From positions 203,978 through 227,977 of the forward strand of contig NZ_JBHUJX010000019.1 of assembly GCF_042683745.1 (NCBI RefSeq): DNA of 24,000 bases, written 5' to 3'. Shown here one piece after another: positions 1,138 through 20,314 of this stretch (within the stretch, counting starts at the first letter, position 1; each line of letters begins with the position of its first letter). Both the position numbers and the translations under genes were made by a program. This stretch comes from Bacillus sp. CGMCC 1.16607. GTDB lineage: Bacteria; Bacillota; Bacilli; Bacillales; Cytobacillaceae. A model generated the notes under the pieces. That model saw only the letters and a program-made list of their open reading frames with translations. It was not told where the DNA came from and ran no database searches.

Positions 1138-1425
1138 AGAAAAAGCGCAAGCTCCTTGATCAGCCCCGATAAAGAAGACTGGTCGATTGGCGAGGTAACG
1201 AAGCCAGAGACCTAGTCGCACTTATGCAAACCGTTCTTTGGTTTGCCAAGCAAATGCTTCGCAGGCCGGAAAGTCGTTCTTTGACTTTTTGGCTGGCGAA
1301 CATTTGACCTCGAGGTCGACAAGGGCTCGGGCGTCCTGTCGCATTGTCGACACTAGTACATCCTGAACGTCGGGGCTAGGACGCTTGCGCTGGACAATTT
1401 TCTAAGTCCGAAAATGTTATACTTT
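1138..1425 (+). repeat. Family-A structured intergenic element, copy 1 (full length, about 288 bp)
   Basis: Left end GAAAAAGCGCAAGCTCCTTGATCAGCCCCGATAA, right end CGTCGGGGCTAGGACGCTTGCGCTGGACAATTTTC plus tail GTCCGAAAATGTTATACTTT. About 90 percent identical by eye to 14973-15254. Shares its ends with four other copies. GC-rich against AT-rich flanks. Confidence 0.9.
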
Positions 1426-1440
1426 CTTATTTTTTAAGAA

Positions 1441-1477
1441 GAAAAAAAGCAATTGGCCAATTAAAACCAACTGCTTT
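1441..1477 (-). terminator. Rho-independent terminator after the MerR/TipA gene
   Basis: Minus-strand hairpin AAGCAGTTGG / CCAATTGCTT followed by TTTTTTT, 16 nt after the stop at 1493. Confidence 0.7.
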
Positions 1478-1492
1478 TGATTGTTTACTAAA

Positions 1493-2257
1493 TTATGCTT
1501 TCATCCCAGTGTAAATTAAAATCGCGTCTCTTAAAAAGAGAGCCGTTCCTGGCTGATTTTTATCGTAATATGCTGTAAATCTTTCATCATCCACATACAT
1601 TTGTCCAAGACCTGCATGCGCTTCTTTACTATATTCACTCCAGTAGTAGCATAACCATTGCTTGTGTAAATCAGCTGCTTTTTGTGCTAATTCCCCTGCA
1701 GGGTCTCCAGTAGCAAAAGCCTGCGCCAACGTAACTTGCACCTGCTCCGCTAATTTTGTCACTTCATCATGTTCTTCTTGGCCCATGTTCATGACTTTAG
1801 CATTTGATTTATCAATCGTATCATCACCATATTTTTCGCGAATTTCTTTCCCATATTTTTTCTCATTATCCTCAATCATTTTTTTCTTAAATCCTTCAAA
1901 CTTTTCTTTATTTGACATATGAATTCTCCCTTCCGTTAAGGCGATCGTTTTATCTACATTTCTTATTAACAAATCTAATTGCTCTCTTTTTTCAAGGAGT
2001 TTCTCACGATGTTCTTTCAGCGCTGAAGCTCCATCAAAGGAAGGGGCAGTGACGATATCCTTTATACTATCTAAGCTAACTCCTAATTCTCGATAGAAAA
2101 GGATTTGCTGTAGGCGATCCACTTCCGCTTGCCCATAGATTCGATAACCAGACGAATTAATTCTTGCCGGCTTAAGAATTCCAATCTCGTCATAGTATCG
2201 TAATGTCCTTGTGCTTACTCCCGCTATACTTCCAAGCTTTTGCACTGTATATTCCAT
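1493..2257 (-). CDS. MerR-family transcriptional activator with TipAS antibiotic-recognition domain (Mta/TipA-like)
   Basis: N-terminal MerR HTH (YTVQKLGSIAGVSTRTLRYYDEIGILKP), a coiled-coil, and a C-terminal TipAS-like region (HKQWLCYYW...YVDDERFTAYYD). GAGGAG RBS 8 nt upstream. Confidence 0.85.
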   Translation of the reverse strand: MEYTVQKLGSIAGVSTRTLRYYDEIGILKPARINSSGYRIYGQAEVDRLQQILFYRELGVSLDSIKDIVTAPSFDGASALKEHREKLLEKREQLDLLIRNVDKTIALTEGRIHMSNKEKFEGFKKKMIEDNEKKYGKEIREKYGDDTIDKSNAKVMNMGQEEHDEVTKLAEQVQVTLAQAFATGDPAGELAQKAADLHKQWLCYYWSEYSKEAHAGLGQMYVDDERFTAYYDKNQPGTALFLRDAILIYTGMKA

Positions 2258-4275: not shown

Positions 4276-5514
4276 TTAAATAAAAAACATCTCATCATTA
4301 AATAGATATAAAAAATTCTTCGTTTTCTCAGCTCTAATAAATCGATTTCTTCCTTGCTTTTTTGCTACGTATAAAGCATCATCAACTGCTTTTTTTAATG
4401 AATCTACTGTTTTTCCGTGATTTGGGAAAACAGCAACACCAGAACTGACTGATACGATGATTGAGTGTTCTAATATGATAAGTGGATTTTGTTTGTAATA
4501 CTCCATCAAATTATCATAAAGATTCTCCATCTCGTTTTCTAATGGAGATTTCATGATAATCATAAACTCATCTCCCGCGTAGCGGTAACCCTCAATGTTC
4601 TCCCCACAAACACTCTTGATTCCATCTGCCAATATCTTTAAATATCTATCGCCGATATCATGACCGAAATTATCATTTACCTTTTTTAAATGATCTGAAT
4701 CTATCATGATAAGGGTGATTTCTTGATTATTATCATTAATCATTTTTGATAAATCATCATGGAAAGCTCGGTGATTTTTTAACCCCGTTAATTCATCTGT
4801 TTGAGACATGACAAAGATCCTTCTGTATAGTCTGGCCGTTTCGATTGAATTGATCACCTGAGTCCCAATGATTTGCAGTAATTCTTCATGCTCTTTTCGA
4901 TAGGCAAAATCCGAATAGCTTTGAGCAGAAATCACTCCTCTGACATGATCATCAATAATGACAGGTACAAACAGACATGATCTAGTGATACCATCTGATC
5001 CATATAGAGCATTATATTCTTCTGATTGAGCTAACTGTTTCTGATGGACAATTTCCCTTGATAAAATCGCCTGGGTGGTATAATTATCACCTAATTCACG
5101 TATAATTGGTGGATAGTATTCCCCTTTATCCATAACAAACGTGAAATCTATCAATGACTCAGCTTCATTATAAAAAGCAATAAAAAAAGATTCCGTGTTC
5201 ATAACTTGAGAGACCATTTCATACGCTTTTTCAAGAAGTATATCCTCGTCCAATGTTTTACTACAAATTTGAGCAAAATCATGTAAAATTTTATAATGCT
5301 TATTCAACCAGCTCATATTTTCCATCTGATCATTTATTAATTCTAATTGAAGTAAGACGGAATCTACTATTTCTTTTTCTTCCCTATCTCCAATATGTTT
5401 TTCAAATTCTTCAAGAGTTTCTTTTGAAAGAATATTTTTTTGAACTCCAATATTTTTAAGCAAATGATTAATTAACGATAAAATCTCCTTATTTCCCATA
5501 TTTAACACTTCCAT
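4276..5514 (-). CDS. GAF-domain diguanylate cyclase (GGDEF domain with AGDEF active-site variant, no RxxD I-site)
   Basis: C-terminal GGDEF domain (ELTGLKNHRAF...IDSDHLKKVNDNFGHDIGDRYL...YRYAGDEFMII...ALYVAKKQGRNRF). Central GAF-like region. Start ambiguous between ATG 5514 and ATG 5499 (weak GGAAG RBS). Confidence 0.85.
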   Translation of the reverse strand: MEVLNMGNKEILSLINHLLKNIGVQKNILSKETLEEFEKHIGDREEKEIVDSVLLQLELINDQMENMSWLNKHYKILHDFAQICSKTLDEDILLEKAYEMVSQVMNTESFFIAFYNEAESLIDFTFVMDKGEYYPPIIRELGDNYTTQAILSREIVHQKQLAQSEEYNALYGSDGITRSCLFVPVIIDDHVRGVISAQSYSDFAYRKEHEELLQIIGTQVINSIETARLYRRIFVMSQTDELTGLKNHRAFHDDLSKMINDNNQEITLIMIDSDHLKKVNDNFGHDIGDRYLKILADGIKSVCGENIEGYRYAGDEFMIIMKSPLENEMENLYDNLMEYYKQNPLIILEHSIIVSVSSGVAVFPNHGKTVDSLKKAVDDALYVAKKQGRNRFIRAEKTKNFLYLFNDEMFFI

Positions 5515-5631: not shown

Positions 5632-5720
5632 AATTTTCGGTAACTGGCTGGCATTATCATTCGACTTAGCCCCTTTAGTTTTGCGTCCTCATTTTTCAAT
5701 GAGTTTGCCTTTTCTAAACG
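5632..5720 (-). ncRNA. c-di-GMP-I (GEMM-I) riboswitch aptamer
   Basis: Minus strand reads AAAAGGCAAAC-UCAUU-GAAA-AAUGA-GGACGCAAAAC...GGGGC...GCCAGCCAGUUACCG. It carries the conserved GGCAAAC, a GNRA-capped hairpin, GACGCAAA(G/A)C, CAGCC and GUUACC elements in the same order as Vc2-type GEMM-I RNAs. Confidence 0.75.
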
Positions 5721-7371: not shown

Positions 7372-7478
7372 TGATCTCCCAACTTTTCCTTTTTTTGTCC
7401 TAAGTCATAGGCTGTCAGTCACATTCCCCATTGTATTCACACCTCTATGTCCATATTCCTTAAGACAAACTCATTTGG

Positions 7479-7660
7479 AAAAAAATTCAGAAGCGCCTTG
7501 ATCAGCCCCGACAAGCAAATGCCGACCCAAAGAGGAGGTTTGCTCTTTAACTTCATCTTTGGGGCGCCATTTGATCTCGAGGTCGACAATAGCACGACGT
7601 CCTGTCGCATTGTCGACACTTGTACATCCTATACTTCGGGGCTAGGCGCTGGAGCTAGAT
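7479..7660 (+). repeat. Family-A structured intergenic element, copy 2 (medium form)
   Basis: AGAAGCGCCTTGATCAGCCCCGACAAGCAAATGCC ... CTCGAGGTCGACAAT...ATTGTCGAC ... CTTCGGGGCTAGGCGCTGGAGCT. It lacks the roughly 75-bp module that full-length copies carry between CCCCGA and CAAGCAAATG. Confidence 0.85.
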
Positions 7661-7842
7661 TACGAAAAACTCCTTCAGAGTTAACCACAACTTATAAACT
7701 ATATTTCTAAGCTCACCACAAATTAAACATTTGCCATATGGAAATCTGATTTTATAATAATGTTAGAATTAAACTCCGAGATTCCTAGTTTTTAAATAAG
7801 GCACTTTTCATAAATTTTGTTTTTCTTGAACAAGTAGAATGG

Positions 7843-7970
7843 TTGATTTCCACTGCAGGTTGCTCGCTTTCCGCGGGGCGGGCGGTGAGCCTCCTCGGAG
7901 TGTACGCTCCTGCGGGGTCTCACCTGTCCCGCTGCTCCCGCAGGAGTCTCGCACCTTCCGTTCCAATCAA
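7843..7970. repeat. Family-B GC-rich palindromic element (single copy in this window)
   Basis: Termini TTGATTTCCACTGCAGG and CCTTCCGTTCCAATCAA are imperfect inverted repeats. The core is very GC-rich. It has a perfect 10-bp stem CTCCTGCGGG (7907-7916) / CCCGCAGGAG (7937-7946) and a competing GGTGAG/CTCACC pairing. The ORFs drawn through it (7792-7998, 7843-8154) lack any start context. Confidence 0.7.
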
Positions 7971-8062
7971 TCTCTATATCAACAGTTTGCGTTTCCAAAG
8001 TTTTAAAACAACAATCTTTGCGAAAAGAGACTTAAATAAAATTAGGTTAGGAAGGAATAGAT

Positions 8063-9160
8063 ATGATTTTACAAGAAAAGGTGCAGACTCTCCCTTCATC
8101 CCCTGGTGTTTATTTAATGAAAGATTCCGTCGGCGGAGTTATTTATGTAGGTAAGGCAAAAAATCTTAAAAGACGAGTTCAATCATATTTTCGAGACTCA
8201 AAGGGGCATTCTCCAAAAATAAAAAAGCTAGTAAAACATTTGAAGGATTTTGATTACATTCTGACCGATACAGAATTTGAAGCTTTTTTGCTGGAATGTC
8301 ACTTAATAAAAGAAATCAAACCAATCTACAATCGAAAAATGAAAAATCCTGGGTCATTTGTCTATATTAAGATTCACCAGACAAAAAGGAGCCCCAAGAT
8401 TGAAATAACCAATTGGTTCATGGAGGATGACGATCATTTTTATTTCGGTCCCTATACAAGTAGAAGTACTGTGGAAAAAGCAATCCAAGGTATTAAAGAA
8501 TGTTTTCAATTACTTTGCTCGAATCCCGCAAACAGCGGGTCTGCCTGTTTAAACTATTCCTTAGGATTGTGCAATGGAATTTGCCTTGGTGGTTCTGCGG
8601 TAGAAGAATATAACCGCATCATTGAAAAAGTCATTTCCTTACTTAATGGTACCGACATGGGCCTTATTAATGAAATGCAGCAAAAGATGCATAATGCTTC
8701 GCTTCATTTTGATTTTGAATCAGCAGCCAAGTATAGAGATCATATAGATGCAGTAGCCTTCTTACTAAAAAAAGAAAAAGTGATTGAATTCACAGAGCAG
8801 AACAAAAATATAGCCATCATCGAATCATTGACTCCATCAACTATCAAGCTTTTTCTTATTAAGAGGACAGAAATTCTTTTTACTGAAAAGTATGTTCTTA
8901 ATGACTTTCAATTAGGGGATTTAAGATCAATAATAAAGGAAAAAATATTGATGTATTTTAAAATGAAGGATAGAACATTTGTTGAAGTGGACAGAAATGA
9001 AATCGATGAAGCTCAGATTATATATAGTTATCTAACTAGCAAGCATTGCAACTATTTTGTTATCCAAGATAACTGTTTAGAAAATGAGAACAATGCCAAA
9101 CTAGGTGAAGAAATAACCCAGTTACTTGAAATTCAATACACAAAAAAACACTCAGGTTGA
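8063..9160 (+). CDS. UvrC N-terminal-half homologue (GIY-YIG nuclease, Cys-rich region and UVR domain; Cho-like)
   Basis: GIY-YIG motifs GVYLMKD...VIYVGKAKNLKRRVQSYF...EAFLLECHLIKEIKPIYN. UvrC-like Cys cluster CFQLLC...CLNYSLGLCNGIC. UVR motif FESAAKYRDHIDAV. It ends at 365 aa, before the position of the UvrC C-terminal RNase H-like endonuclease and HhH domains. GGAAGGA RBS. Confidence 0.8.
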   Translation: MILQEKVQTLPSSPGVYLMKDSVGGVIYVGKAKNLKRRVQSYFRDSKGHSPKIKKLVKHLKDFDYILTDTEFEAFLLECHLIKEIKPIYNRKMKNPGSFVYIKIHQTKRSPKIEITNWFMEDDDHFYFGPYTSRSTVEKAIQGIKECFQLLCSNPANSGSACLNYSLGLCNGICLGGSAVEEYNRIIEKVISLLNGTDMGLINEMQQKMHNASLHFDFESAAKYRDHIDAVAFLLKKEKVIEFTEQNKNIAIIESLTPSTIKLFLIKRTEILFTEKYVLNDFQLGDLRSIIKEKILMYFKMKDRTFVEVDRNEIDEAQIIYSYLTSKHCNYFVIQDNCLENENNAKLGEEITQLLEIQYTKKHSG

Positions 9161-9170
9161 GTGTTCTTTT
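9146..9170. terminator. Bidirectional terminator shared by the GIY-YIG gene and the PspA gene
   Basis: Hairpin AACACTC / GAGTGTT overlaps the stop codon at 9158-9160. T-run on plus (CTTTT) and a longer one on minus (TTTTTTT). Confidence 0.65.
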
Positions 9171-9183
9171 GTGTTACATATGA

Positions 9184-9825
9184 TTACGAGATCGATTTGT
9201 TTTCTCCCATCTCTTTCTCTAATTGAGCAACTCTTGCATCAATCGTACTGCGGTAATAAGAATGATTTACTTGGTGTTCTAAACGATCCAGATAACCTTC
9301 AATTTCTTGGAAACGAGAAATTGATGAATCGGAATAAGTATTGGATTTCAAAACTTGGTCCATACGGTGGTTCGCTCTTGTTACATTTTCACGTCCCATT
9401 AATTCTAACCGACGTATATTCATATCTTTCAGTTTGTGTTTCATTTTTTCATATTTTCTTTCTAATTCCCCGAGCTGCCCGATTACTTGTTTTAGGGACT
9501 CATTTAAGCGTTCGGCACGTCCAGCATATTGCTCTAACTCAGCTACTGCAAATTGATAAAGCTCCGTTTCCCCTGCCTTGGCTGCAATTTCAGCTTGATG
9601 TTTTCTTTTCTCCACCATTTCCTCGGCTTCTTTCACTTCCCTAATAAATCCTTCTTTTAATGCGTGTTGACGCTCCACTAGCTTACCTACTTTTTCTGTT
9701 TCTTGCTCGCATTGGCGAAGATATTGATTAAGTAGAAGTATCGGATTTTTGCTTTCTGTTTTATCAAGTGCCCCATTTAAATCTGCAGCTATAGTATCCT
9801 TTAATCTTATAAATAAGTTTGTCAT
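9184..9825 (-). CDS. PspA/IM30-family protein (LiaH/PspA-like)
   Basis: Fully coiled-coil protein of 213 aa. The PspA-type N-terminus (LFIRLKDTIAADLNGALDKTE..NPILLLNQYLRQCEQE) is collinear with B. subtilis LiaH/PspA as I recall them. AGGAGAG RBS. Confidence 0.8.
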   Translation of the reverse strand: MTNLFIRLKDTIAADLNGALDKTESKNPILLLNQYLRQCEQETEKVGKLVERQHALKEGFIREVKEAEEMVEKRKHQAEIAAKAGETELYQFAVAELEQYAGRAERLNESLKQVIGQLGELERKYEKMKHKLKDMNIRRLELMGRENVTRANHRMDQVLKSNTYSDSSISRFQEIEGYLDRLEHQVNHSYYRSTIDARVAQLEKEMGENKSIS

Positions 9826-9845
9826 GTCATTTCTCTCCTTTAATT

Positions 9846-10193
9846 TTAATAATTTTTCAAGTCATTCCATTGTTTTTCAAAATTAACAAATGGATCTGTT
9901 TCTTCTTTTACTACTGCATATTTCTTCCCATTCCATTTTTTATATACTAGGTAGAGTATATAAGCAGCTACTAAGCCGATGATTGCAGGAACATTATGAA
10001 TGCTTGCCATAAGAACGAAGAAACCGATGATTCCTATGCCAATTTTTCCACCTGTTGATTCTGCCTTTAAAAATTGTTTATAAATAAAGTATAGAAGTAC
10101 TAAGCTAACTAGTAGCCCAATCATCGGACCAATCGTAGAAAGTAATACAATTGCTGCAACTCCACCTGCTAAAAGTAAACCAAATTTTTTCAT
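9846..10193 (-). CDS. Small membrane protein upstream of PspA (LiaI-like anchor candidate)
   Basis: About 115 aa from MKKFGLLL, with three to four TM helices and an acidic C-terminal tail. It ends 20 nt before pspA, the same gene order as liaI-liaH. Start moved to ATG 10193 (AAAGGGTG RBS). Confidence 0.5.
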   Translation of the reverse strand: MKKFGLLLAGGVAAIVLLSTIGPMIGLLVSLVLLYFIYKQFLKAESTGGKIGIGIIGFFVLMASIHNVPAIIGLVAAYILYLVYKKWNGKKYAVVKEETDPFVNFEKQWNDLKNY

Positions 10194-10310
10194 TTTGTTT
10201 TCACCCTTTCTTGATCTTGATATCATCTTACCTCCATTCCAACTTTCTCATAACGAGCTTGAGCTTTATTTTGGAATAGGTCTTAAGGTGTAGAGAGGGT
10301 CAGTCTATTT

Positions 10311-10361
10311 ATAAAAAAAGTGCCAGGAACCACGAAGAAATTCGTGGTCCCTGGCACTTTT
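10311..10361 (-). terminator. Rho-independent terminator after PTS EIICB
   Basis: Long hairpin AGTGCCAGGGACCACGAA / TTCGTGGTTCCTGGCACT (minus-strand reading) followed by TTTTTTT. Confidence 0.85.
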
Positions 10362-10370
10362 GTATGCATT

Positions 10371-11810
10371 TTAATTGCGAATTTTTTCAATTTCATCTGC
10401 AACGAATTGTACAGATGTTCCTACAATCACTTGGATGCTCTGTGGTCCGACAATATTTATTCCCGGAACACCTGTAGATTTAATTTTACTTTGGTCTACC
10501 GCGTTCATATCTTTCACTTCGACTCTTAACCGAGTGATACAATTGTCAACCGATACTACATTCGCATCTCCACCAAGCCCTTCATAAATTTTTGCAGCCA
10601 TTGCTGCAAAGTTTCCTTTAGAAATAGGCTCCATACCTGTATCATCATCCGTATCATCTTCTCTACCTAATGTGATTAAGTTGAATTTTGTAATTAGGAA
10701 GCGGAATAATACATAGTAAATGACGGCAAAAACAAGTCCTTGTACTAATAACATATAGGGTTGGTTGGCAATTGGATTTCGCAAACTTAGGAAAAAGTCG
10801 ATAAATCCAGCGCTAAAGGCAAATCCTGCTGTCCAGTGAAAAAGGGAAGCAATCACTAAAGAAATACCTGTTAATGCGGCATGGACTAAATAAAGAACTG
10901 GCGCAACAAACATAAACGCAAATTCAAGTGGTTCTGTAACCCCTGTAAAGAAGGAAGCAAAGCCTGCGGCAACCATCAATGAAGCGACTTGTTTTTTCTT
11001 TTTTGTTTTTGCTGTATGGTACATCGCTAATGCTGCAGCTGGGAGACCAAACATCATAATTGGGAAGAATCCAGCTTGGTACATTCCTGTTACACCTTTT
11101 TCGCCCTTACCAGACAAGAAGTTACCTATATCATTGATTCCAGCTACATCGAACCAGAAAACAGAATTTAACGCATGGTGTAATCCAGTAGGAATTAATA
11201 ATCGATTGAAGAAACCATATAAACCTGCACCAACAGCACCTAAATCACTAATCCCTTTTCCAAAGGAAACTAATGCCGAAAAAATGACTGGCCACGCAAA
11301 GAATAAAATTAAAGAAACGAATAGCATCGAAACCGCTGTCATAATTGGCACCAATCTTTTTCCACTAAAGAAAGCCAAAGCATCTGGCAATTGAACATGA
11401 CTGAATCGATTGTACATGATAGAGGCAATGATCCCTGAAAGAATCCCTACAAAAGCATTTCCTATTTTTACAAATGCAGGGTCTACATTTGCCGGATCTA
11501 TTTCTTTTAGTAGAGCAACTGAATTCGTTGAAAGTAAGGTCGTAACAACTAAAAATGCTACCAGTCCACTTAAAGCCGAGGAGCCATCCTTGTCTTTTGA
11601 CATCCCTAAGGCTACCCCTACCGCGAATAAAACCGGAATATTATCAATTACGGAAGCACCCGCTTTAATTAAGAAAGCTGCTATGGGACTGCCTGCTCCC
11701 CAGCCTGTAGGATCGATCCAATATCCAATCCCCATTAAAATAGCAGCAGCTGGTAACACAGCAACAGGCAGCATCAATGATCGGCCAAGCCTTTGAAGAT
11801 ATTTCTTCAT
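10371..11810 (-). CDS. PTS glucose-family EIICB component (PtsG/NagE-like)
   Basis: EIIC motifs (LQRLGRSLMLPVAVLPAAAIL, FFPIMMFGLPAAALAMY, GVTEPLEFAFMFVAPVLY). C-terminal EIIB with the phospho-Cys motif VDNCITRLRV. Start set to ATG 11810 (AAGGAGGAAGG RBS); the track start is an upstream TTG. Confidence 0.9.
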   Translation of the reverse strand: MKKYLQRLGRSLMLPVAVLPAAAILMGIGYWIDPTGWGAGSPIAAFLIKAGASVIDNIPVLFAVGVALGMSKDKDGSSALSGLVAFLVVTTLLSTNSVALLKEIDPANVDPAFVKIGNAFVGILSGIIASIMYNRFSHVQLPDALAFFSGKRLVPIMTAVSMLFVSLILFFAWPVIFSALVSFGKGISDLGAVGAGLYGFFNRLLIPTGLHHALNSVFWFDVAGINDIGNFLSGKGEKGVTGMYQAGFFPIMMFGLPAAALAMYHTAKTKKKKQVASLMVAAGFASFFTGVTEPLEFAFMFVAPVLYLVHAALTGISLVIASLFHWTAGFAFSAGFIDFFLSLRNPIANQPYMLLVQGLVFAVIYYVLFRFLITKFNLITLGREDDTDDDTGMEPISKGNFAAMAAKIYEGLGGDANVVSVDNCITRLRVEVKDMNAVDQSKIKSTGVPGINIVGPQSIQVIVGTSVQFVADEIEKIRN

Positions 11811-12008
11811 TCGAACCTTCCTCCTTGTCAATATAACCTTTTAACGTCTGTTACTAATAAGAATGAATAATTTCAAATATGTGATGTGATTTTAAGTTAA
11901 GTAAATTTAGCTCTCACCTTCTTTCCTTTAATATCTTTGAAGACGTGGAGATCTCATTTTATATGAATATTCGGTAAATTAGGAGCATACCGCTACTCAC
12001 CATACTAA

Positions 12009-12497
12009 TCATTTTGCATTTACTGTCATAATCACGGTTTCACCTTGAATACCTTCCTTTTCTTCCGTAATGGTATACACTTTATCTCCTCCATGACTAT
12101 TTGTAATGACGATCGGTGTGATGATGCTTTTTGCATGAGTACGGATATATTCCCAATCAACTTTAACCAGCAACTGGCCAACAGATACCGTTTCACCCAA
12201 ACTGACATCTACTTTAAAACCTTCTCCCTTTAAAGAAACCGTTTCCAAACCTATATGAATGAGAATTTCTGAACCATCCTTCGCAAGAATGCCGATAGCA
12301 TGCTTCGTAGGGGCAATTTGAATAATCTTCCCCTCTACTGGAGCACAAATATTCCCCCCAACTGGAATAACAGCTATCCCCTGCCCCATCATCTTTTGAC
12401 TGAAAACGGGATCAGGAACCTTCTCAATGGGGACTATCTCACCATTGACTGGCATAACTATTTGTAATTTTTCTTTTTTAAAAAGATTAAATAGCAT
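12009..12497 (-). CDS. PTS EIIA(Glc)-type component
   Basis: EIIA-Glc fold motifs, including both catalytic-region His residues (APTKHAIGI, EILIHIGLETV). Start set to ATG 12497 (GAAGGAGAAGG RBS). Confidence 0.85.
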   Translation of the reverse strand: MLFNLFKKEKLQIVMPVNGEIVPIEKVPDPVFSQKMMGQGIAVIPVGGNICAPVEGKIIQIAPTKHAIGILAKDGSEILIHIGLETVSLKGEGFKVDVSLGETVSVGQLLVKVDWEYIRTHAKSIITPIVITNSHGGDKVYTITEEKEGIQGETVIMTVNAK

Positions 12498-12584
12498 TTC
12501 TTCCTTCTCCTTCACTAAGACTTTAGATGATGATTACTATATTTTTATTACTTGTATTAGAGAATAAGTACTACAGGTTCCTCC

Positions 12585-12646
12585 TAAAAAAATAAAAAGT
12601 GTCAAATACGCCCAAAAACAACAGTTTTTTTGGTGTATTTGACACT
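12585..12646 (-). terminator. Rho-independent terminator after desR
   Basis: Minus-strand hairpin AGTGTCAAATAC / GTATTTGACACT followed by TTTTTATTTTTTT, immediately after the stop at 12651. Confidence 0.8.
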
Positions 12647-12650
12647 AATA

Positions 12651-13250
12651 TTATTTAAACCAGCCCTTTTCTTTCGACTGGGTTATGGCTTCGATTCGAT
12701 TTTTTACTTCAAGTTTGTCCAAGATGGTAGATATATAATTCCTTACGGTTCCCGTCTTTATACTAAGTTCATTAGCTATTTCATTGGTGTTCTTTCCATT
12801 AGCTACAAGTTCTAATACTTCCTTTTCACGGTCCGTAAGCGGATTTTCCTCACCATAAACATCTTCAATTAGTTCTGGTGCATATATTCGTTTTCCATCC
12901 ATGACGCTTCGAATCGAGCTTGCCAACTCTTCACTCGGACTATCCTTCAGTAAATATCCGCATACTCCCGCTTTTAATGCACGTTGAAAATAACCGGTTC
13001 TTGCGAAAGTCGTTAAGATAATCACCTTACAGTTTAGACCTTTAAGTTCTTCCGCTGCTTCGAGCCCGCTTTTACCTGGCATTTCAATATCCATTATGCA
13101 AACATCTGGTTGGAGTTTCTTTACAAGAGCTATTGCTTCTTCCCCGTTAGAAGCCTTGCCCACTACTTCCATATCATCCTCTAAATTAAGCAATGAACCA
13201 AAAGCTCCTAACAGCATTTGCTGGTCTTCAGCAATAACGATTGTAATCAT
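12651..13250 (-). CDS. desR: NarL/LuxR-family response regulator DesR
   Basis: Collinear and highly similar over its full length to B. subtilis DesR as I recall it (IAEDQQMLLGA.GSLLNLEDDMEVVGK...DVCIMDIEMPGK.GLEAAEELK...KNRIEAIT.SKEKGWFK). Its start overlaps the desK stop by 4 nt. Confidence 0.85.
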   Translation of the reverse strand: MITIVIAEDQQMLLGAFGSLLNLEDDMEVVGKASNGEEAIALVKKLQPDVCIMDIEMPGKSGLEAAEELKGLNCKVIILTTFARTGYFQRALKAGVCGYLLKDSPSEELASSIRSVMDGKRIYAPELIEDVYGEENPLTDREKEVLELVANGKNTNEIANELSIKTGTVRNYISTILDKLEVKNRIEAITQSKEKGWFK

Positions 13251-14383
13251 TTCATTTCCTCCCTATCTGCCTGCTTAACATCATTTGGTACCTTCATGAT
13301 TAAGGTTGTGCCTTCTTTTGTCAATAAATCAAGACTACCGTTTACAAATTCTAAACGTTCTCTCATACCGATTAGTCCGTGACCTTTCACTTCCGTATCC
13401 TCAGAAATCTTAAAAGTTCCATTATCTTGTATAGTAATCATAATTTCCTTCCATGATTGTTCAATATAAACTGAACAAATAGTAGCTCCACTATGTTTAA
13501 CTACATTGGTTACAGCCTCTTTCAAGCACATACTTAAAATATTTTCAGTAAGCAATGAAACATTCTTCAATGCAAAATCCTCGTCCCCAAGAAAGGTAAT
13601 TTGAGCAGCATCCAATATTTGTTTAATTCGTACCATTTCATCCTTCAAGCGAATTCCACGCATCGAAGAAACCATCTTCCTCACTTCATTTAAGGCAGTT
13701 CTTGCGGTCTGCTGAACATCCCTCAGTTCATTACGTGCCTGTTCAGGATTTTTTTGAATTAATCGTCTTGCCAGATCACTCTTTAAACCGATTAGAGAAA
13801 GCTTTTGCCCCAATGTATCATGGAGATCACGGGCAATTCGCTGACGTTCTTCTATTTTAATTAGCTCAGAAATCTTCTTATTTGCATCTTCAAGTTTTTC
13901 TTCCAACTGACCCATTTCTTTTTTATTTCGAATATTGAAAGGGAGAAGGATTACACTAATCCAAATGATAAAGACAATTGGCAATTGCTTAATGAATAAA
14001 CCTTCCTTCAGAACGATGCTAAGGTTGATTGAAACAGATGTACTAATTAAATGCACAAAATACAAGGTGAAAAAAGCAACACGATTTTTTACATTGCCAA
14101 TCAAATACGCTAAGAAGAAGGCAAAATAAACATAACTGAAAAGATTTGTTGCCGTTACTGATATTCCAATCAATATGAAGGTCCAAAGATAAATAGTCCA
14201 ACCTTTAGATAAAAACGCAATGCGATAAATAATAAAGAATAAGACAGTAAGCGAAACCCCCACAACAATTTGAATCGTTGAAGAAGATTGAAAAATAAAA
14301 TAAAACGGTAATATCGCAAGAATCGTCCAGATATAAGGAGATATCCCGTTAATCTTCTGGAATGTCAAATACCTTTTAAACAT
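13247..14383 (-). CDS. desK: Membrane thermosensor histidine kinase DesK (HisKA_3 family)
   Basis: Five N-terminal TM helices. Long stretches match B. subtilis DesK from memory (FQK.NGI.PYIWTI..ILPFYFI, ERQRIARDLHDTLGQKLSLIGLKSDLAR, LSMCLKEAVTNVVKHS, GHGL.GMRERLEF.NGSL). AAGAGGT RBS. Confidence 0.85.
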   Translation of the reverse strand: MFKRYLTFQKINGISPYIWTILAILPFYFIFQSSSTIQIVVGVSLTVLFFIIYRIAFLSKGWTIYLWTFILIGISVTATNLFSYVYFAFFLAYLIGNVKNRVAFFTLYFVHLISTSVSINLSIVLKEGLFIKQLPIVFIIWISVILLPFNIRNKKEMGQLEEKLEDANKKISELIKIEERQRIARDLHDTLGQKLSLIGLKSDLARRLIQKNPEQARNELRDVQQTARTALNEVRKMVSSMRGIRLKDEMVRIKQILDAAQITFLGDEDFALKNVSLLTENILSMCLKEAVTNVVKHSGATICSVYIEQSWKEIMITIQDNGTFKISEDTEVKGHGLIGMRERLEFVNGSLDLLTKEGTTLIMKVPNDVKQADREEMK

Positions 14384-14585
14384 ACAAGATACCTCTTTTT
14401 AATTTTTTTCAAATATATACCTTACTTCTCTCCATATCTTACCACTTCGTCTATGGTATGAGGGAGAAATTTGTATTCAAAGGAGTACGAGCACATATTT
14501 TTTTACGAAAAATCCAAACTAAAAACTGCTGCTATTACTTCAAAGGGAGTTGGTTTGTTTGAAATGGCAAAAGAGGATATTATCC

Positions 14586-14969
14586 ATGATCCAGGACCGT
14601 CAAGATAAAAAAATAGCACTTGCTGTTGACACCTCAAGTGTCGAAGTACGCTCTATTTTAATAAACAATATTGTGAAATTGTTTGAAACCGTGAAACCTG
14701 AAACCATCCTTGTCCAAGCAGATTTCAAAATCCGAAGTATCACTCCCGTAAAAGCGGATACCATCAAATATTATTCGCACGGAAAATCGTCCTATACGTT
14801 AGTATTAGAATGGGCAAAAAATGAAAATATCGATACATTATTCTACATTACCGATGTTACAGGTTATATTTATGAAGAAATAACAAGCGTGGATTACGAA
14901 TTATTTTGGTTAGTTCCGGATGAATTCCTTCCAAAAGTGCCTTTCGGAAAAGCGATAAAGGTTGCCTAA
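14586..14969 (+). CDS. Small hypothetical protein with degenerate VWA-like (DUF2201-type) domain
   Basis: KKIALAVDTSSVEV resembles a MIDAS DxSxS strand. ILVQADFKI and TLFYITDVTGY...ELFWLV follow the beta-strand pattern of the VWA-like C-terminal domain of DUF2201 proteins, but the metal-binding residues are degenerate. Start uncertain: ATG 14586 with AAGAGGA RBS is preferred over TTG 14550/14559. Confidence 0.4.
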   Translation: MIQDRQDKKIALAVDTSSVEVRSILINNIVKLFETVKPETILVQADFKIRSITPVKADTIKYYSHGKSSYTLVLEWAKNENIDTLFYITDVTGYIYEEITSVDYELFWLVPDEFLPKVPFGKAIKVA

Positions 14970-14972
14970 ATT

Positions 14973-15254
14973 AGAAAAGCGTAAGCGCACTTGTAAGCTC
15001 CGATAAAGAAGACTGGTTGATTGGCGAGTGTAGCGAAGCCAGAGACCTAGTCGCACTTAGCAAAACGTTCTTTGGTTTGCCAAGCAAATGCTTCGAAACC
15101 CAGAAAGTCGTTCTTTGACTTTTTGGGTTTCGAACATTTGACCTCGAGATCGACAATAACGCGACCTCCTGTCGCTTTGTCGACACTAGTACGTAGTACG
15201 TCCTGTACGTCGGGGCTAGGCGCTGGAGCTGGACAATTTTCGCAGTCCAAAAAT
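14973..15254 (+). repeat. Family-A structured intergenic element, copy 3 (full length)
   Basis: Collinear with 1138-1425 across all modules. Starts 3 nt after the stop at 14969 and ends about 5 nt before the convergent stop at 15260. Confidence 0.9.
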
Positions 15255-15259
15255 TTCCT

Positions 15260-16834
15260 TCAATTCACTAACACATCAATTAATGTTAATTCTGATGGAT
15301 TGCTTAAGGCTGTCGTCAACATTTGTTCGAAATCAGCTAAATCTTTAGGTCTTACTCCTTTTATTCCAAAGCTCTTCGCTAATTGAACATAGTCAGGGTT
15401 TCCGAATGGTGTCCCGAAAGTACTATTAAATTTTTTTAACATCATTTGTTCTTCCAATTTCAATTTTCCATCGTTTAAAATAATGATAATCAATGAAGTG
15501 CCTAGGCGTTTTGCCGTCTCGATTTCAGCAAAATTCATCAAGGCTCCGCCATCGCCAGTAATACAAATAACATGTTCATCTGGGCATGCTAGTTTAGCCC
15601 CTATCGCACCAGGTATCGCGATTCCCATTGATGCTAAACCATTTGAAATAATCAGACCGTTCGCCTTCTTTGGTTGATAAGTGCGAGCAATGGATACTTT
15701 ATGAGCACCTACATCCGAGATGACAATCGATTTATCGGACGACAGTTTTTCTATTACGCTTATTACATTTTCTATTGATAGTAAAGGGTTCACTTCATTC
15801 GTATCGATTTGATAAGATTGTTTGATCTGTTCTTTCAGATTCCCACTTGGAACCCATGGTTTAGGTGAGGGCTCAAGCTTATGTAAAAATTGTTTTACTT
15901 CTCCCACCAATTCTAATTGCACAGGATAATATTCATCCATTTCTGCTGGTAGTGCATCAATATGTAATATAGGGAGTTTCTTTTTATTCCAATCCTTTGG
16001 TAGTCTTTCAACTAAATCAAATCCTATAACAATCAGTAAGTCTGATTCATCTATCACACGAGTAGCTTCATCCTTCTCTTTAAACCCAAACGTAAAGTAA
16101 TTGAGTGGGTGATTTTTAGAGAGTATACCTTTAGCCGTAAAACTATGAATAGCGGGTGACTGAAGTTTTTCAATAAAGGCTTGTACTTCCCCTATAGCGT
16201 TTTGCCTAATCACTCCATTTCCAATAATAATAAGTGGTTTCTTAGATTGTTGAATGAGTGAATAGGCATCTTTTATTGACTGTTCCACTGGACTAGTTGA
16301 AGGAATAGGTATAACTGGTAACGGAATAGTTGAAATCATTTGCGCTGCTAAATTCTCTGGTAATTCTATTAATACAGCTCCTGGCTTTTCCATTTTTGCT
16401 AATCGAAATGCCTTTCTAATGATCTCAGCCGTCGTTTCGGAATTTTTTATTTGGACACTCCACTTTGTTGAAGGTTCAAAAATTTTAACTAAATCCAAAT
16501 ATTGATGAGATTCTTTATGTTGCCTTTCAAAACCTGCCTGTCCTGTAATTGCTACAACCGGTGAATAGTCTAAATTTGCACTTGCAATTCCTGTTAATAA
16601 GTTGATAGCTCCAGGTCCTAATGTGGCTAAACATACTCCAACCTTATTTGATAATCGACCGTAGACATCTGCCATGAAAGCAGCACTCTGCTCATGCCGA
16701 ACAGTGATATACTGAATGTTTTGTGATTTTGACAAAGAATCAATTAGGTCGACTGTTTCTGAGCCCATGATTCCAAATATATACTCGACCCCTTCATTTT
16801 CTAAACATTGAACCATTAAATCTGTAACCTTCAT
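15260..16834 (-). CDS. Thiamine-pyrophosphate-dependent enzyme (acetolactate-synthase-like)
   Basis: N-terminal TPP-pyrimidine domain (LENEGVEYIFG..G...DLIDSL...RHEQSAAFMADVYGR, GPGAINLLTGIA). C-terminal TPP-binding motif (GDGGALMNFAEIETA...IIILNDG). Start set to ATG 16834; the substrate cannot be assigned. Confidence 0.8.
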   Translation of the reverse strand: MKVTDLMVQCLENEGVEYIFGIMGSETVDLIDSLSKSQNIQYITVRHEQSAAFMADVYGRLSNKVGVCLATLGPGAINLLTGIASANLDYSPVVAITGQAGFERQHKESHQYLDLVKIFEPSTKWSVQIKNSETTAEIIRKAFRLAKMEKPGAVLIELPENLAAQMISTIPLPVIPIPSTSPVEQSIKDAYSLIQQSKKPLIIIGNGVIRQNAIGEVQAFIEKLQSPAIHSFTAKGILSKNHPLNYFTFGFKEKDEATRVIDESDLLIVIGFDLVERLPKDWNKKKLPILHIDALPAEMDEYYPVQLELVGEVKQFLHKLEPSPKPWVPSGNLKEQIKQSYQIDTNEVNPLLSIENVISVIEKLSSDKSIVISDVGAHKVSIARTYQPKKANGLIISNGLASMGIAIPGAIGAKLACPDEHVICITGDGGALMNFAEIETAKRLGTSLIIIILNDGKLKLEEQMMLKKFNSTFGTPFGNPDYVQLAKSFGIKGVRPKDLADFEQMLTTALSNPSELTLIDVLVN

Positions 16835-16910
16835 CGTCCTCTTCCCTTCCAAAAATAGGTCAATAAAACTGTTTGAAATTAGTTTTATCCAATATTTTCT
16901 TTTTCATGTT

Positions 16911-16953
16911 AAGAAAAGCGGAAGCGCCTTTATTAGCCCCAATAAAGAAGACT
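16911..16953 (+). repeat. Family-A element, copy 4 (left-end fragment only)
   Basis: AGAAAAGCGGAAGCGCCTTTATTAGCCCCAATAAAGAAGACT matches the first roughly 43 bp of full-length copies, then diverges. Confidence 0.7.
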
Positions 16954-17027
16954 AAAAAAAGTTTGTATAATTCACTGGCTAGTCAAGTATGATTAAGTTA
17001 GAAATTCATTTTTATGGGGTGGAAATC

Positions 17028-17591
17028 GTGTATTTGTTTTCTACTATTACTCATGAAACCCGATCCATTGTACAGTCTTTTAGTAAAATTTCTAAAACAA
17101 AGCGAATGATTATCGGTTCCATATTTAGTTGTTTGGCCGCAGTATTCCAAATGGCGGGTGGTCTTCTGCCGGTTGTAGGATACTTTATTAGCCCTTTAGC
17201 AACTGCACCTATTCTGATTTGTTCCATTTTTTCTAAGTCATTCGGATTATCTTCCTACCTACTAACCATATTATTACTACTAGTTCTGGAACCAAGTGAA
17301 TTGATCATTTTTCCTTTTACAACGGGGTTACTAGGATTAGGAATCGGATTTGCCTTTCACTATTTCGAAAAAAGGTTAAGTATTATTTTGAGTGGCGCTA
17401 TCTCATTAACATCTGGAATCACCATATTATTATTCGGCATGCAATTTCCCGTTTTAGGACCAAGTGTTTCTCATGATTTTGATCTATTAATGATCGGATC
17501 CATTTTTTTATGTTCCATTTTTTATAGTTGGCTATGGGTTGGCTTCGCCTTCAAGAATATTAAAAAATTTCATAAAAGTTTATGGACATAA
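17028..17591 (+). CDS. Polytopic membrane protein of unknown function
   Basis: Five to six TM helices, no motif I can name. Start probably GTG 17028 (GGGGTGGA RBS) rather than track ATG 16989, which sits about 12-19 nt after a TGTATAAT extended -10 (16963-16970). Confidence 0.45.
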   Translation: MYLFSTITHETRSIVQSFSKISKTKRMIIGSIFSCLAAVFQMAGGLLPVVGYFISPLATAPILICSIFSKSFGLSSYLLTILLLLVLEPSELIIFPFTTGLLGLGIGFAFHYFEKRLSIILSGAISLTSGITILLFGMQFPVLGPSVSHDFDLLMIGSIFLCSIFYSWLWVGFAFKNIKKFHKSLWT

Positions 17592-17592
17592 A

Positions 17593-17625
17593 GAAGCAGG
17601 GACCTTCACTGGCCCCTGCTTCTTT
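17593..17625. terminator. Bidirectional terminator between the membrane-protein gene and ctaB
   Basis: Hairpin GAAGCAGGGACC / GGCCCCTGCTTC with T-rich flanks on both strands. Confidence 0.75.
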
Positions 17626-17644
17626 ATTATTCATTAAAAAAGTA

Positions 17645-18586
17645 TTAAGAAAATATTGGAAGTGTGACAATAACAGCCATTAGGAATATGATCGTTATAT
17701 AATTCACTGAATAAATGAAATTCACGCGCGCCCATTTTAGATCATCTTTTGTGAAAAAACCACTAATACACACAACTAACCAGCCAATATTTAGTGCGGT
17801 CGCAATGACAATAAAGGCTGTACCAAGTGACCCTAAATAAAATGGTAGTGGCAGTAAGCCCACAGTATAAATAGCCATTTGCCGCTTTGTCATTTCGAAA
17901 CCGTGGACAACTGGAAGCATCGCTACTTTTGCTGCTTTGTATTCTTCATATTTTCTTATGGCAATTGCAAAAGTATGTGGCATTTGCCAAATAAACAGGA
18001 TCAGAAACAACATAATCGGAACGACATGAAAACCTGGTGCAATGGCTGTCCAGCCTATTAATGGTGTAACTGCACCTGAAATACTTCCAATAACTGTATT
18101 AAGTGTATATCTTCGTTTAGACCACATCGTATACAAAATAACATACGTAAACCAACCAACGAATGCGTAAATAACTGATTCAAAGGTCGTAAATAATAAT
18201 AGAATAAAGCCAATAATAGTTAGGGCAATTCCTAATGCTAAAACCACTTTAAGAGAAATATTGCCTGTTACAGTTGGACGGTTTTTCGTTCTTTCCATGA
18301 TTGTATCAATGTCGACATCGTACCAATTATTAAGAATAAGTGCTCCAGCCATAACTAAAGTACTTCCGATTAATGTTAACCAAAATAAATCCAAGTGATC
18401 AGCTAATGATGCATCGGTAAAATAGAGCGCTAACCAAAAACCAGTAAATACTGGTAAGACATTTGCAATTAAAACAATTCCTTTAAATAATGACTTTAGA
18501 TCAGAAAGCAAACTAAAAAAACTTCGACCATTCGATAAAGCCGTTCCCCCAACCTTCTGTTGAGAAGGTATCTCATATTTGCTCAT
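17645..18586 (-). CDS. ctaB: Protoheme IX farnesyltransferase (heme O synthase)
   Basis: UbiA-family prenyltransferase with the CtaB/CyoE motifs LNNWYDVDIDTIMERTKNRP and YTLNTVIGSISGAVTPLIGW. Nine TM helices. GAGGAGG RBS. Confidence 0.9.
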   Translation of the reverse strand: MSKYEIPSQQKVGGTALSNGRSFFSLLSDLKSLFKGIVLIANVLPVFTGFWLALYFTDASLADHLDLFWLTLIGSTLVMAGALILNNWYDVDIDTIMERTKNRPTVTGNISLKVVLALGIALTIIGFILLLFTTFESVIYAFVGWFTYVILYTMWSKRRYTLNTVIGSISGAVTPLIGWTAIAPGFHVVPIMLFLILFIWQMPHTFAIAIRKYEEYKAAKVAMLPVVHGFEMTKRQMAIYTVGLLPLPFYLGSLGTAFIVIATALNIGWLVVCISGFFTKDDLKWARVNFIYSVNYITIIFLMAVIVTLPIFS

Positions 18587-18703
18587 TTAATATCCTCCTC
18601 TAAGAAGAAATCATACATTTGCAATGATACTGTATTTTGGACAGATTGTCATTTCAATTACATATATTTAGAAAAGAATATGATGGAAATTTAATTAGTT
18701 GAT

Positions 18704-18823
18704 AGAAAAGCGGAAGCGCACTTGTAAGCCCCGATAAAGTAGACTGGTCGATTGGCTAGAGTTACGTCGGGGCTGAGACGCTTGCGCTGGACAATTTTCG
18801 TAGTCCGGAAATGTTATACTTTT
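18704..18823 (+). repeat. Family-A element, copy 5 (left and right ends joined, internal modules absent)
   Basis: AGAAAAGCGGAAGCGCACTTGTAAGCCCCGATAAAGTAGACTGGTCGATTGGC joined directly to ACGTCGGGGCTGAGACGCTTGCGCTGGACAATTTTCGTAGTCCGGAAATGTTATACTTT. Confidence 0.85.
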
Positions 18824-18827
18824 TACT

Positions 18828-18858
18828 GAAAAAAGACACTCCAAATCGAGTGCCTTTT
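18828..18858 (-). terminator. Rho-independent terminator after the orf1-like membrane gene
   Basis: Minus-strand hairpin AGGCACTC / GAGTGTCT followed by TTTTTT, 18 nt after the stop at 18876. Confidence 0.7.
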
Positions 18859-18875
18859 CATTTATATTTATTATT

Positions 18876-19451: not shown

Positions 19452-19454
19452 CGT

Positions 19455-20087: not shown

Positions 20088-20127
20088 ATCGACCACTTCC
20101 CAAGTTAAAATTTCCAAATAAGTGTAT

Positions 20128-20164
20128 AAAGAGATAGCCCTAGACACCGAGCTATCTCTTTTTT
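20128..20164. other. Stem-loop between subunit I and SCO genes (possible intra-operon attenuator or processing site)
   Basis: AAAGAGATAGC (20128-20138) pairs with GCTATCTCTTT (20151-20161). The T-run is better on the plus strand (TTTTTT) than on the operon (minus) strand (TTTAT). Confidence 0.45.
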
Positions 20165-20187
20165 AAAAGATCATTTTTTCTTTTCTA

Positions 20188-20311
20188 ACTGTCCAGCTCC
20201 AGCGGCTAGCCCCTCGAGGTCAAAACCCAATCCGTCATGAAGGTTAAAGAACAACCTTCAAGCCGGCTCGTCTTTTGCTTGTCGGGGCTGATCAAGCCGC
20301 TTCCGCTTTTC
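20188..20311 (-). repeat. Family-A element, copy 6 (medium form, inverted orientation, inside the operon)
   Basis: Minus strand reads CGAAAAGCGGAAGCGGCTTGATCAGCCCCGACAAGCAAAAG...TTGAAGGTTGTTCTTTAACCTTCA...GACCTCGAGGGGCTAGCCGCTGGAGCTGGACAG. It begins 4 nt after the subunit I stop codon. Confidence 0.85.
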
Positions 20312-20314
20312 GTT

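Follow-up and report, generated by a model that had tools for sequence, protein, structure and literature searches.

What are the GC-rich, hairpin-dense segments that recur six times between the genes of Bacillus sp. CGMCC 1.16607 within 24,000 nucleotides of its chromosome, and how did they come to lie there? The stretch analysed, hereafter the window, corresponds to positions 203,978 to 227,977 of contig NZ_JBHUJX010000019.1 (forward strand), and its six copies of one element are called c1 to c6 in the order of their positions. The reading we favour, with the chances for and against it about equal, is that these copies belong to a large Bacillaceae family of non-coding, non-autonomous hairpin repeats, comparable to the REPIN and BIME repeats of other bacteria, which spread by way of single-stranded DNA and are inserted after a hairpin followed by a T-run. 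The single-strand step of this mobility, taken by itself, deserves less confidence than that.

The six copies were first noticed in a reading made from the letters of the window alone (the sequence-only reading), and all of them lie at, or within a few bases of, the coordinates given there. A degenerate pattern of the left end matches five of the six with no mismatch, against 0.00 matches expected from shuffled sequence; the remaining copy (c2, at 7482) has diverged from it over its first 8 nucleotides. When 77 relatives from other genomes are used to build a covariance model, it finds the same six loci in the window and no other convincing match. Identity amounts to 89.6% between c1 and c3 (280 aligned columns), 92.6% between c1 and c5 and 89.5% between c2 and c6. 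As had been claimed, the copies are richer in G+C than the spacers around them, with 42-55% against 31-35% in their 150-nucleotide flanks and 35.8% in the remaining window. The two ends were thought to close into a long stem enclosing internal hairpins, and the predicted fold of c1 (-122.8 kcal/mol, z = -7.25) agrees, its closing stem being formed by the two ends around four hairpins; the opposite strand folds slightly more weakly. All six copies are indeed intergenic, the only open reading frames (ORFs) that overlap them (7447-7710 and 15072-15386, of 87 and 104 amino acids) having no family match, and no annotated ORF of the window matches a transposase, integrase or reverse-transcriptase family, as the sequence-only reading had also held.

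The element is found far beyond this window. No copy matches any of the 4227 Rfam families, at the gathering threshold or at E<=5, and the left-end pattern, scanned against species-representative genomes, has at least 116 matching stretches in at least 11 Bacillaceae genera, so that the element is neither catalogued in Rfam nor confined to the place where it was first seen. The genera among the matches listed are Mesobacillus, Neobacillus, Metabacillus, Cytobacillus, Lederbergia, Virgibacillus, Heyndrickxia, Siminovitchia, Fredinandcohnia, Rossellomorea and Pseudoneobacillus, to which many records named 'Bacillus sp.' must be added. All later counts on relatives refer to the 0.94 Mb of loci around these listed matches, which bear L numbers where one has to be named. 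Profiles of the arms (nhmmer) detected there 126 elements with both a left and a right arm and 45 solitary arms. The lengths of the paired elements fall into discrete classes of about 118-123 (the majority), 150, 170-181, 239-240, 296 and 353 nucleotides, and among 163 copies none exceeds 357 nucleotides or contains an ORF. Near-identical copies occupy unrelated loci within one genome, three of them in Bacillus sp. V3-13 and five in Virgibacillus necropolis, and many soil and marine Bacillaceae probably carry of the order of a hundred copies or more per genome. The only public assembly with the window's exact proteins, Logan SRR35762316, is broken at c2, c3, c5 and c6, its contigs L001, L123 and L122 covering about 7900-14970, 15210-18733 and 18800-20220 of the window respectively, and runs unbroken through the 43-nucleotide remnant c4; the ending of short-read contigs at four copies is independent evidence for many copies in the source genome. 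Typical copies are also present in records named 'Chryseobacterium sp. ISL-80' (L002, L032) and 'Bacillus subtilis strain DE0224' (L054), where the label is probably wrong or the assembly mixed.

The basic unit of the family measures about 120 nucleotides: two conserved arms, complementary to each other, flank a single inner hairpin that varies. It is thus an inverted doublet of a left arm GCGCCTTGGTCAGCCCCGAC and a complementary right arm CTCGAGGGGCTAGGCGC; in forward orientation it opens with GAAAAGCG and the left arm CAAGCGCCTTGGTCAGCCCCGACAAGC, passes through an inner hairpin whose stem is variable and whose loop is conserved (GTTCTTTG), and is completed by the right arm followed by TGGAGCTGGACA. 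Larger forms are built by the addition of hairpin modules in steps of about 55-60 nucleotides, by tandem arrays with a period of about 122 nucleotides (L008, L043, L051, L055, L099) and by nesting, a diverged paralogous unit often separating the inner hairpin from the right arm (L037, L018 and the forms of 239-353 nucleotides). Of the window's copies, c1 and c3 have four modules and c6 is the canonical single-hairpin unit. Short forms in L059 and L089 result from deletion between short direct repeats such as GCGCTGGAG, and the truncated c4 and the internally deleted c5 are shortened forms of the same sort. The proposal that copies differ by whole modules and not by decay therefore stands as regards the loss of modules, and has to be widened to include such internal deletions.

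The extra modules of longer copies are of several unrelated kinds. One of them is a mini-hairpin, NNNN-RTCCT-NNNN, with a conserved loop and covarying stems (CCAC/GTGG, GCAC/GTGC, CGAC/GTCG, GTAC/GTAC and others), which occurs 25 times in 18.5 kb of elements; it is seen in the window at 7595-7607, 15162-15174 and 15196-15208, and in many longer copies of the loci (for example L020, L028 and L066). On the opposite strand its loop reads CAGGAYG and resembles a CsrA site, CAGGAYG being the motif repeated in the CsrB-type sponges of CsrA. A different module, of about 70 nucleotides and without a hairpin, is inserted within the right arm at L066 5646-6353, L070 3920, L019 7094 and L103 3864, and in it GAGGAGG precedes a mini-ORF, ATGAAAACTGGCTAG, that reaches its stop codon inside the arm. 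Two multi-module copies lie head to head where a 7.2-kb contig of a metagenome-assembled genome ends (L072 6764-7179) and form a near-perfect palindrome of about 400 nucleotides; the inverted duplication may be genuine, or else it was created by the assembly.

Where does the element end? In Bacillus sp. V3-13 and in V. necropolis, the near-identical copies whose loci are unrelated fix its boundaries at head and tail sequences, of which there are two types. Type A has the head (G)ATAAGAAAAGCG and the tail ...TTTTATACTTTCTTAT, and type B the head (T)AGGAACAAAAGCG and the tail ...TTATCCACA N9-11 TTTTATAATTTCCTA. Heads and tails go together by type (21 A-A, 13 B-B, 5 A-B and 2 B-A; Fisher p = 4e-5), and in each type they are complementary over 7-10 nucleotides, thereby forming a short outer inverted repeat (ATAAGAAAG/CTTTCTTAT or TAGGAA/TTCCTA) with respect to which the long complementary arms are subterminal. 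The sequence-only reading had taken these arms for the termini: their complementarity, like that of an inverted REP (repetitive extragenic palindrome) doublet, was rightly recognized, and the true terminal inverted repeat lies outside them. Its right ends were too short, complete copies extending some 25-50 nucleotides further into the conserved tail, and they are now set at 1429 for c1, about 7711 for c2 and 18826 for c5. The tails of c1 and c5 are of type A, that of c3 is a truncated type A and that of c2 a degenerate type B.

The type-B tails keep a perfect DnaA-box 9-mer, TTATCCACA (for example at L013 5139-5200, L023 2179-2240 and L107 4675-4735), and 12 of the 24 exact occurrences of this 9-mer in the 0.94 Mb follow a right arm on its 3' side at 10-25 nucleotides and share its orientation; in c2 the box is degenerate (7681-7689, TTAACCACA). 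Its presence deserves mention since the orientation of the element follows replication, as set out below.

With the boundaries fixed, no target-site duplication was found in 22 complete copies at any boundary offset, matches of three or more nucleotides being no commoner than with permuted flanks. This result bears directly on one explanation, that of a classical MITE (miniature inverted-repeat transposable element), a deletion derivative of a DDE insertion sequence that moves by cut-and-paste through its terminal inverted repeats and leaves target-site duplications. The copies are short, non-coding, numerous and bounded by inverted termini, and internally deleted forms occur, all of which suits a MITE. 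However, duplications of 3-8 bp are absent from these copies, the outer inverted repeat measures just 7-10 nucleotides where about 15-30 bp are expected, none of the 163 copies exceeds the length given above or contains an ORF, and the strong replication-strand bias of the family is unexpected for a double-strand cut-and-paste process. Because a defining feature of it was looked for and is missing, the classical MITE is the weakest of the alternatives, and we consider it very unlikely indeed. The class proposed by the sequence-only reading, that of a non-autonomous MITE/REP-like or multi-copy structured element, was right in its general sense and fails only for the MITE in this strict form.

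The sites occupied by the element have a marked common feature. Of 26 tails, 23 have an A-run within about 2-15 nucleotides after them, compared with 41 of 435 windows drawn at random from intergenic sequence (p = 7e-19), and a strong hairpin peculiar to the locus also comes after the tail (median -15.6 against -8.5 kcal/mol, p = 1e-8); the A-run and this hairpin together make up the intrinsic terminator of a neighbouring gene. In the window such an arrangement is found beside c1, c5 and c6. It is exemplified by the intrinsic terminator of gene 1493-2257 (minus strand), an A-run, hairpin and T-run at 1445..1478 on the minus strand, 15 nucleotides past the tail of c1. Orientation is no more random than position, for the forward strand of the element is the strand of negative GC skew in 78 of 89 clusters (p = 1e-13), with the leading strand being deduced from GC skew only, and in all seven of the clusters flanked by lagging-strand genes, some of which have a weak skew. 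Orientation thus tracks the replication strand better than it does the neighbouring genes: among 100 clusters, 48 are antisense to both neighbours, 22 lie between convergent genes, 18 are co-directional with both neighbours and 12 lie between divergent genes. The plus strand of the window has a negative skew, and five of its six copies are forward on that strand. Read along the leading strand, the order is hairpin, T-run and then the element in reverse orientation.

Reversed in this way, the element has a GC helix at its end with UUUUCUUAU after it, and it would therefore act as a terminator or insulator if transcribed. The host might then retain it as a 3'-end element, a back-up terminator or insulator behind leaky terminators, which within a 3' untranslated region would also serve as a barrier to RNases, as proposed for REP and SPRITE repeats. 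The geometry is canonical in c1, whose closing helix ends ...GCUUGCGC with UUUUUCU directly after it; in 70 of the 100 contexts a gene's 3' end lies on the tail side, complete copies stand 2-15 nucleotides from the terminator, and orthologous sites are occupied in related species (L021/L067, L061/L076, L018/L066, L057/L114). In the common arm variant, by contrast, a 3x3 internal loop and just 2 more pairs intervene between the 7-bp GC helix and the U-tract, a poor geometry for a terminator. Furthermore, a second terminator behind a good one brings no obvious benefit, the 18 co-directional copies lie inside transcription units in the non-terminating orientation, and the nested copies, the arrays and the inverted repeat of head and tail are left unexplained. 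A role of this kind as the reason for the element's presence seems to us quite unlikely.

Two pairs of orthologous intergenic sites occupied in both of two related species (L061 4486-4680 and L076 3365-3620; L057 5200 and L114 5808) differ in the number of units, or in inner-hairpin stems by multiple compensatory changes. These differences suggest turnover at the same site through re-insertion or gene conversion.

The pairing of the element is strongly maintained throughout the family. The consensus structure of 77 distinct units comprises 34 pairs, of which 26 show changes on both sides; 94.1% of the cells are paired against 76.7% after shuffling, none of 500 shuffles reaching the observed values, and the proportion falls to 32-46% when the partners are slid. 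Compensatory variation extends to whole arms (AGGGGC/GCCCCT, AGCTCC/GGAGCT, GCCGC/GCGGC), mostly in tandem or nested copies, and the arm sequences are about 95% conserved across genera. Could the element then be a structured non-coding or cis-acting RNA? Such an RNA would be made in the forward orientation by transcription from upstream and would end at the adjacent bidirectional terminator, its CU-rich tail (ACUUUCUUA / UUUCCU) or its conserved loops (GUUCUUUG, RUCCU) being the sites of interaction. The very strong covariation, which includes the variable inner hairpins with their conserved loops, speaks for it, as do the excess of G-U over A-C cells on the forward strand (109 against 31, an excess dominated by few columns), the scores given to c6 by the family model (131.6 bits on its own strand, 11.7 bits on the opposite one) and the resemblance of a forward copy followed by A-run, hairpin and T-run to the body of a small RNA with its own terminator. 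But hairpins in DNA leave the same covariation signal, and neither inspection nor a consensus scan revealed a conserved promoter geometry at the head or in the tail. The 48 contexts antisense to both neighbours, with an orientation that tracks the replication strand and not the transcription of the neighbours, also argue against an RNA; copy numbers put in the hundreds per genome, the occurrence of truncation, nesting and arrays, and bursts of identical copies peculiar to one species typify selfish repeats; and no Rfam family corresponds to the element. On balance, we hold the RNA explanation to be unlikely. A promoter in the tail was rejected as a candidate, the TATACT/TATAAT present there having a wrong or variable spacing to a -35-like hexamer and the consensus scan flagging nothing at the copies.

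The model we prefer, that of a mobile hairpin repeat, combines these observations. Bursts of identical copies, nested, arrayed and decayed forms, conserved ends around freely varying interiors and the lack of coding capacity characterize a proliferating non-autonomous DNA repeat. The absence of target-site duplication, the dominance of hairpins in the structure, the adjacency to a hairpin and T-run and the strand bias together are the signature of a single-strand, replication-coupled mobility. IS200/IS605 elements and the REP/RAYT system (RAYT, REP-associated tyrosine transposase) possess hairpin ends, make no duplication and are inserted in a strand-specific, replication-coupled manner beside a short target. 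In our model, the family would multiply within genomes as DNA; its mobilisation would probably occur in trans and involve a single-stranded, folded intermediate at the replication fork. This intermediate would land immediately 3' of a hairpin and T-run, that is of an intrinsic terminator, on the lagging-strand template and would be inserted without target-site duplication. In that orientation, the element would form a long GC-rich hairpin followed by UUUUCUUAU, and would act as an extra terminator or insulator if transcribed.

Several observations weigh against this model. The autonomous partner with the same termini that the sequence-only reading had called for was not found in the 0.94 Mb of loci: all-versus-all clustering of their ORFs gave only ordinary gene families and no recurrent partner gene, no Y1 transposase or RAYT-like gene was found in them, and the genes flanked by inverted copies are housekeeping genes by a Pfam check, none of them a transposase. 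No clean pair of a filled and an empty site was obtained, the orthologous loci within reach being too divergent. The nagP-ptsIIA spacer is filled in Bacillus sp. B15-48 and apparently empty in the window, with a divergence too great to set boundaries, and the rplS-lepB spacer has a different sequence and is not a clean empty site. The distance from the T-run to the end of the element varies from 0 to 12 nucleotides, with no fixed target tetranucleotide. The leading strand was deduced from the skew of 8-kb pieces, in which it is confounded with gene orientation, and some of the seven decisive clusters flanked by lagging-strand genes are those of weak skew. The wobble excess described above favours folding of the forward strand and, since the single-strand model exposes the opposite one, conflicts with it in a weak but real manner. 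Finally, the conservation of the arms across genera would also fit a host function.

If the single-strand route were nevertheless the right one, the family might represent a previously undescribed REPIN-like system of Firmicutes, a modular single-stranded DNA element that homes, on the lagging-strand template, to the side of intrinsic terminators where the T-run lies and is driven by a probably domesticated host enzyme; this more specific proposal is tentative, and we regard it as doubtful. The DnaA box in the tail of one subfamily and the RTCCT mini-hairpins could reflect co-option by the host for the titration of DnaA or of an RNA-binding protein.

Individually, the copies of the window illustrate most of these forms. 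The first, c1, is a full form (1138..1429, plus strand) with the head AGAAAAAGCG, a left arm at 1141-1172, four inner hairpin modules, a right arm at about 1367-1403 of the variant GACGCTTGCGCTGGACA, complementary to the head throughout, and a type-A tail, ...GTTATACTTTCTTA, that ends at 1429. The medium form c2 (7482..7711, plus strand) has a diverged head on its left arm, then two inner modules, a right arm reaching about 7659 and, after it, the degenerate type-B tail GAGTTAACCACAACTTATAAACTATATTTCTAAG. The full form c3 (14972..15262, plus strand) is located between the convergent genes 14550-14969 (plus strand) and 15260-16852 (minus strand), its type-A tail being cut short or degenerate where the downstream gene has its stop codon. 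All that is left of c4 (16911..16953, plus strand) is the head and left arm together with the opening bases of module H1. The internally deleted c5 (18703..18826, plus strand), of the c1 type, joins head, left arm and the start of H1 to the right arm and a type-A tail, and is followed by a terminator-like hairpin at 18837-18852. The single-hairpin unit c6, of about 122 nucleotides (20187..20312, minus strand), has the form that is commonest in other genera, and sits between the stop codon of gene 20315-22012 (minus strand) and a hairpin at about 20130-20170.

Otherwise the window is an unremarkable segment of a Bacillaceae chromosome, with genes of chemotaxis, cyclic di-GMP (c-di-GMP) signalling, a phosphotransferase system, a two-component system, acetolactate synthase, heme O synthase and cytochrome oxidase. 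A c-di-GMP-I riboswitch (5636-5719, minus strand; 74.3 bits, E = 3.7e-13) is situated upstream of a GGDEF-domain gene (4276-5514, minus strand), and an EAL-domain gene is found at 23056-23958 (minus strand). A second GC-rich repeat, unrelated to the first (7836-7974, plus strand; ...CGCGGGGCGGGCGGTGAGCCTCCTCGG...CTGCGGGGTCTCACCTGTCCCGC...), lies upstream of a UvrC-like gene (8063-9160). It is predicted to fold with -61.2 kcal/mol (z = -3.55), has no Rfam match and has relatives in 10 Bacillaceae loci, the best being L062 7730-7862 (E = 6e-17).

The family has an immediate practical side: it breaks short-read assemblies, and the ORFs without family match that overlap its copies may be called as spurious genes, so that a family model would improve annotation straight away. 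To our knowledge, Proteobacteria are almost the only hosts in which REP/RAYT-type systems are known. A family of analogous structure in Firmicutes would offer a new system for the study of how hairpin repeats spread, a question to which it is especially suited by its terminator-adjacent, replication-oriented insertion, and it would help to show how such repeats pick their targets and whether hosts domesticate them. The replication-oriented targeting of terminators by a hairpin repeat is the point of interest here.

How does this element compare with those already described? Besides Rfam, the plasmid and phage collections gave nothing by blastn with full copies (the 288-bp copy had no match in 72,556 plasmids), and a 50-nucleotide query of the left end found in them only a truncated left arm on a megaplasmid of Bacillus sp. 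CMF21. The arm sequences appear in no paper of the literature searched, and the elements described in the MITE, bcr, REP and Bacillus tandem-repeat literature differ from ours. Among structured non-autonomous intergenic repeats the family is thus new as far as Rfam, these collections and the papers searched extend, no match having been found in them. Chi (AGCGG), integron attC sites, CRISPR-like arrays, retrons and tRNA-like structures were rejected as candidates, the motif not being conserved or the defining context being absent.

Within the Bacillaceae lineage, the interspersed repeats bcr1-bcr18 of the B. cereus group measure 100-400 bp and some have conserved folds with compensatory changes (PMC3184786); they are described as restricted to that group and as accompanied by TTTAT motifs or 5-bp direct repeats (PMC6542083, PMC3184786). 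By their description, and not by a comparison of consensus sequences, they differ from our element in that several bcr types occur on plasmids, where the 288-bp copy was not encountered; no genome of the B. cereus group is among the at least 116 matches listed. The tandem repeats described in Bacillus are 52 or 20-21 nucleotides long (PMC8161180).

The logic of insertion, and that alone, is shared with the palindrome-associated transposable elements (PATEs) derived from IS200/IS605 and with group IIC introns, which make no duplication, have ends folded as single strands and show an orientation tied to the replication strand. Of the IS200/IS605-type traits, the orientation bias by replication strand is present in our family, as judged from GC skew, and, as regards a fixed target of 4-5 nucleotides, the element lies 3' of a hairpin and T-run at a spacing that varies from 0 to 12 nucleotides, where no fixed tetranucleotide emerged. 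Robart et al. reportedly found in 2007 that the IIC introns of Bacillaceae insert just after intrinsic terminators. Our element is set apart by the lack of tnpA/tnpB and of intron ribozyme features, and its ends pair together instead of forming separate left-end and right-end hairpins; a group IIC intron or a derivative of one (D5/D6, 5' GUGYG) was rejected, there being no Rfam group II match and the termini being different.

The closest architectures are those of SPRITE, BOX and REPIN/BIME. Like our element, SPRITE repeats are terminator-like, measure about 105-120 nucleotides, are biased to the 3' ends of genes, cluster with other repeats and insert into them. They differ in sequence and host family, and the Bacillaceae element, with its much longer arms and its modular build, adjoins a separate, locus-specific terminator and is not a mere terminator mimic. 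The BOX elements of Streptococcus pneumoniae (boxA-boxB(n)-boxC) are likewise modular, with end modules that are conserved and pair and with a variable number of internal modules, and they too are intergenic, form stable hairpins and reside in a Gram-positive host. They have no sequence similarity to our element, whose internal modules are of several unrelated kinds where BOX repeats a single boxB, and neither terminator adjacency nor replication-strand bias is reported for BOX.

REPIN/BIME repeats are doublets of REP sequences found in Pseudomonas and Enterobacteriaceae and mobilised by RAYT, an IS200-like Y1 transposase. When the Bacillaceae family is placed beside them, both consist of two conserved inverted arms that form one long hairpin, in high copy number, between genes and in tandem clusters; both are mosaics of arms and linker motifs; and both display compensatory changes and no target-site duplication. 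There are differences as well. The RAYT gene belongs to the REPIN/BIME system and was not found in the 0.94 Mb of loci examined here. By inspection of the alignment, the arms GCGCCTTGGTCAGCCCCGAC and CTCGAGGGGCTAGGCGC are not self-complementary palindromes of 20-40 nucleotides with a GTAG/CGTC tag. The spacer is here a hairpin module of at least 55 nucleotides, which can be multiplied or nested, a head and tail pair brackets the whole element, and the hosts are Bacillaceae where those of REPIN/BIME are Proteobacteria.

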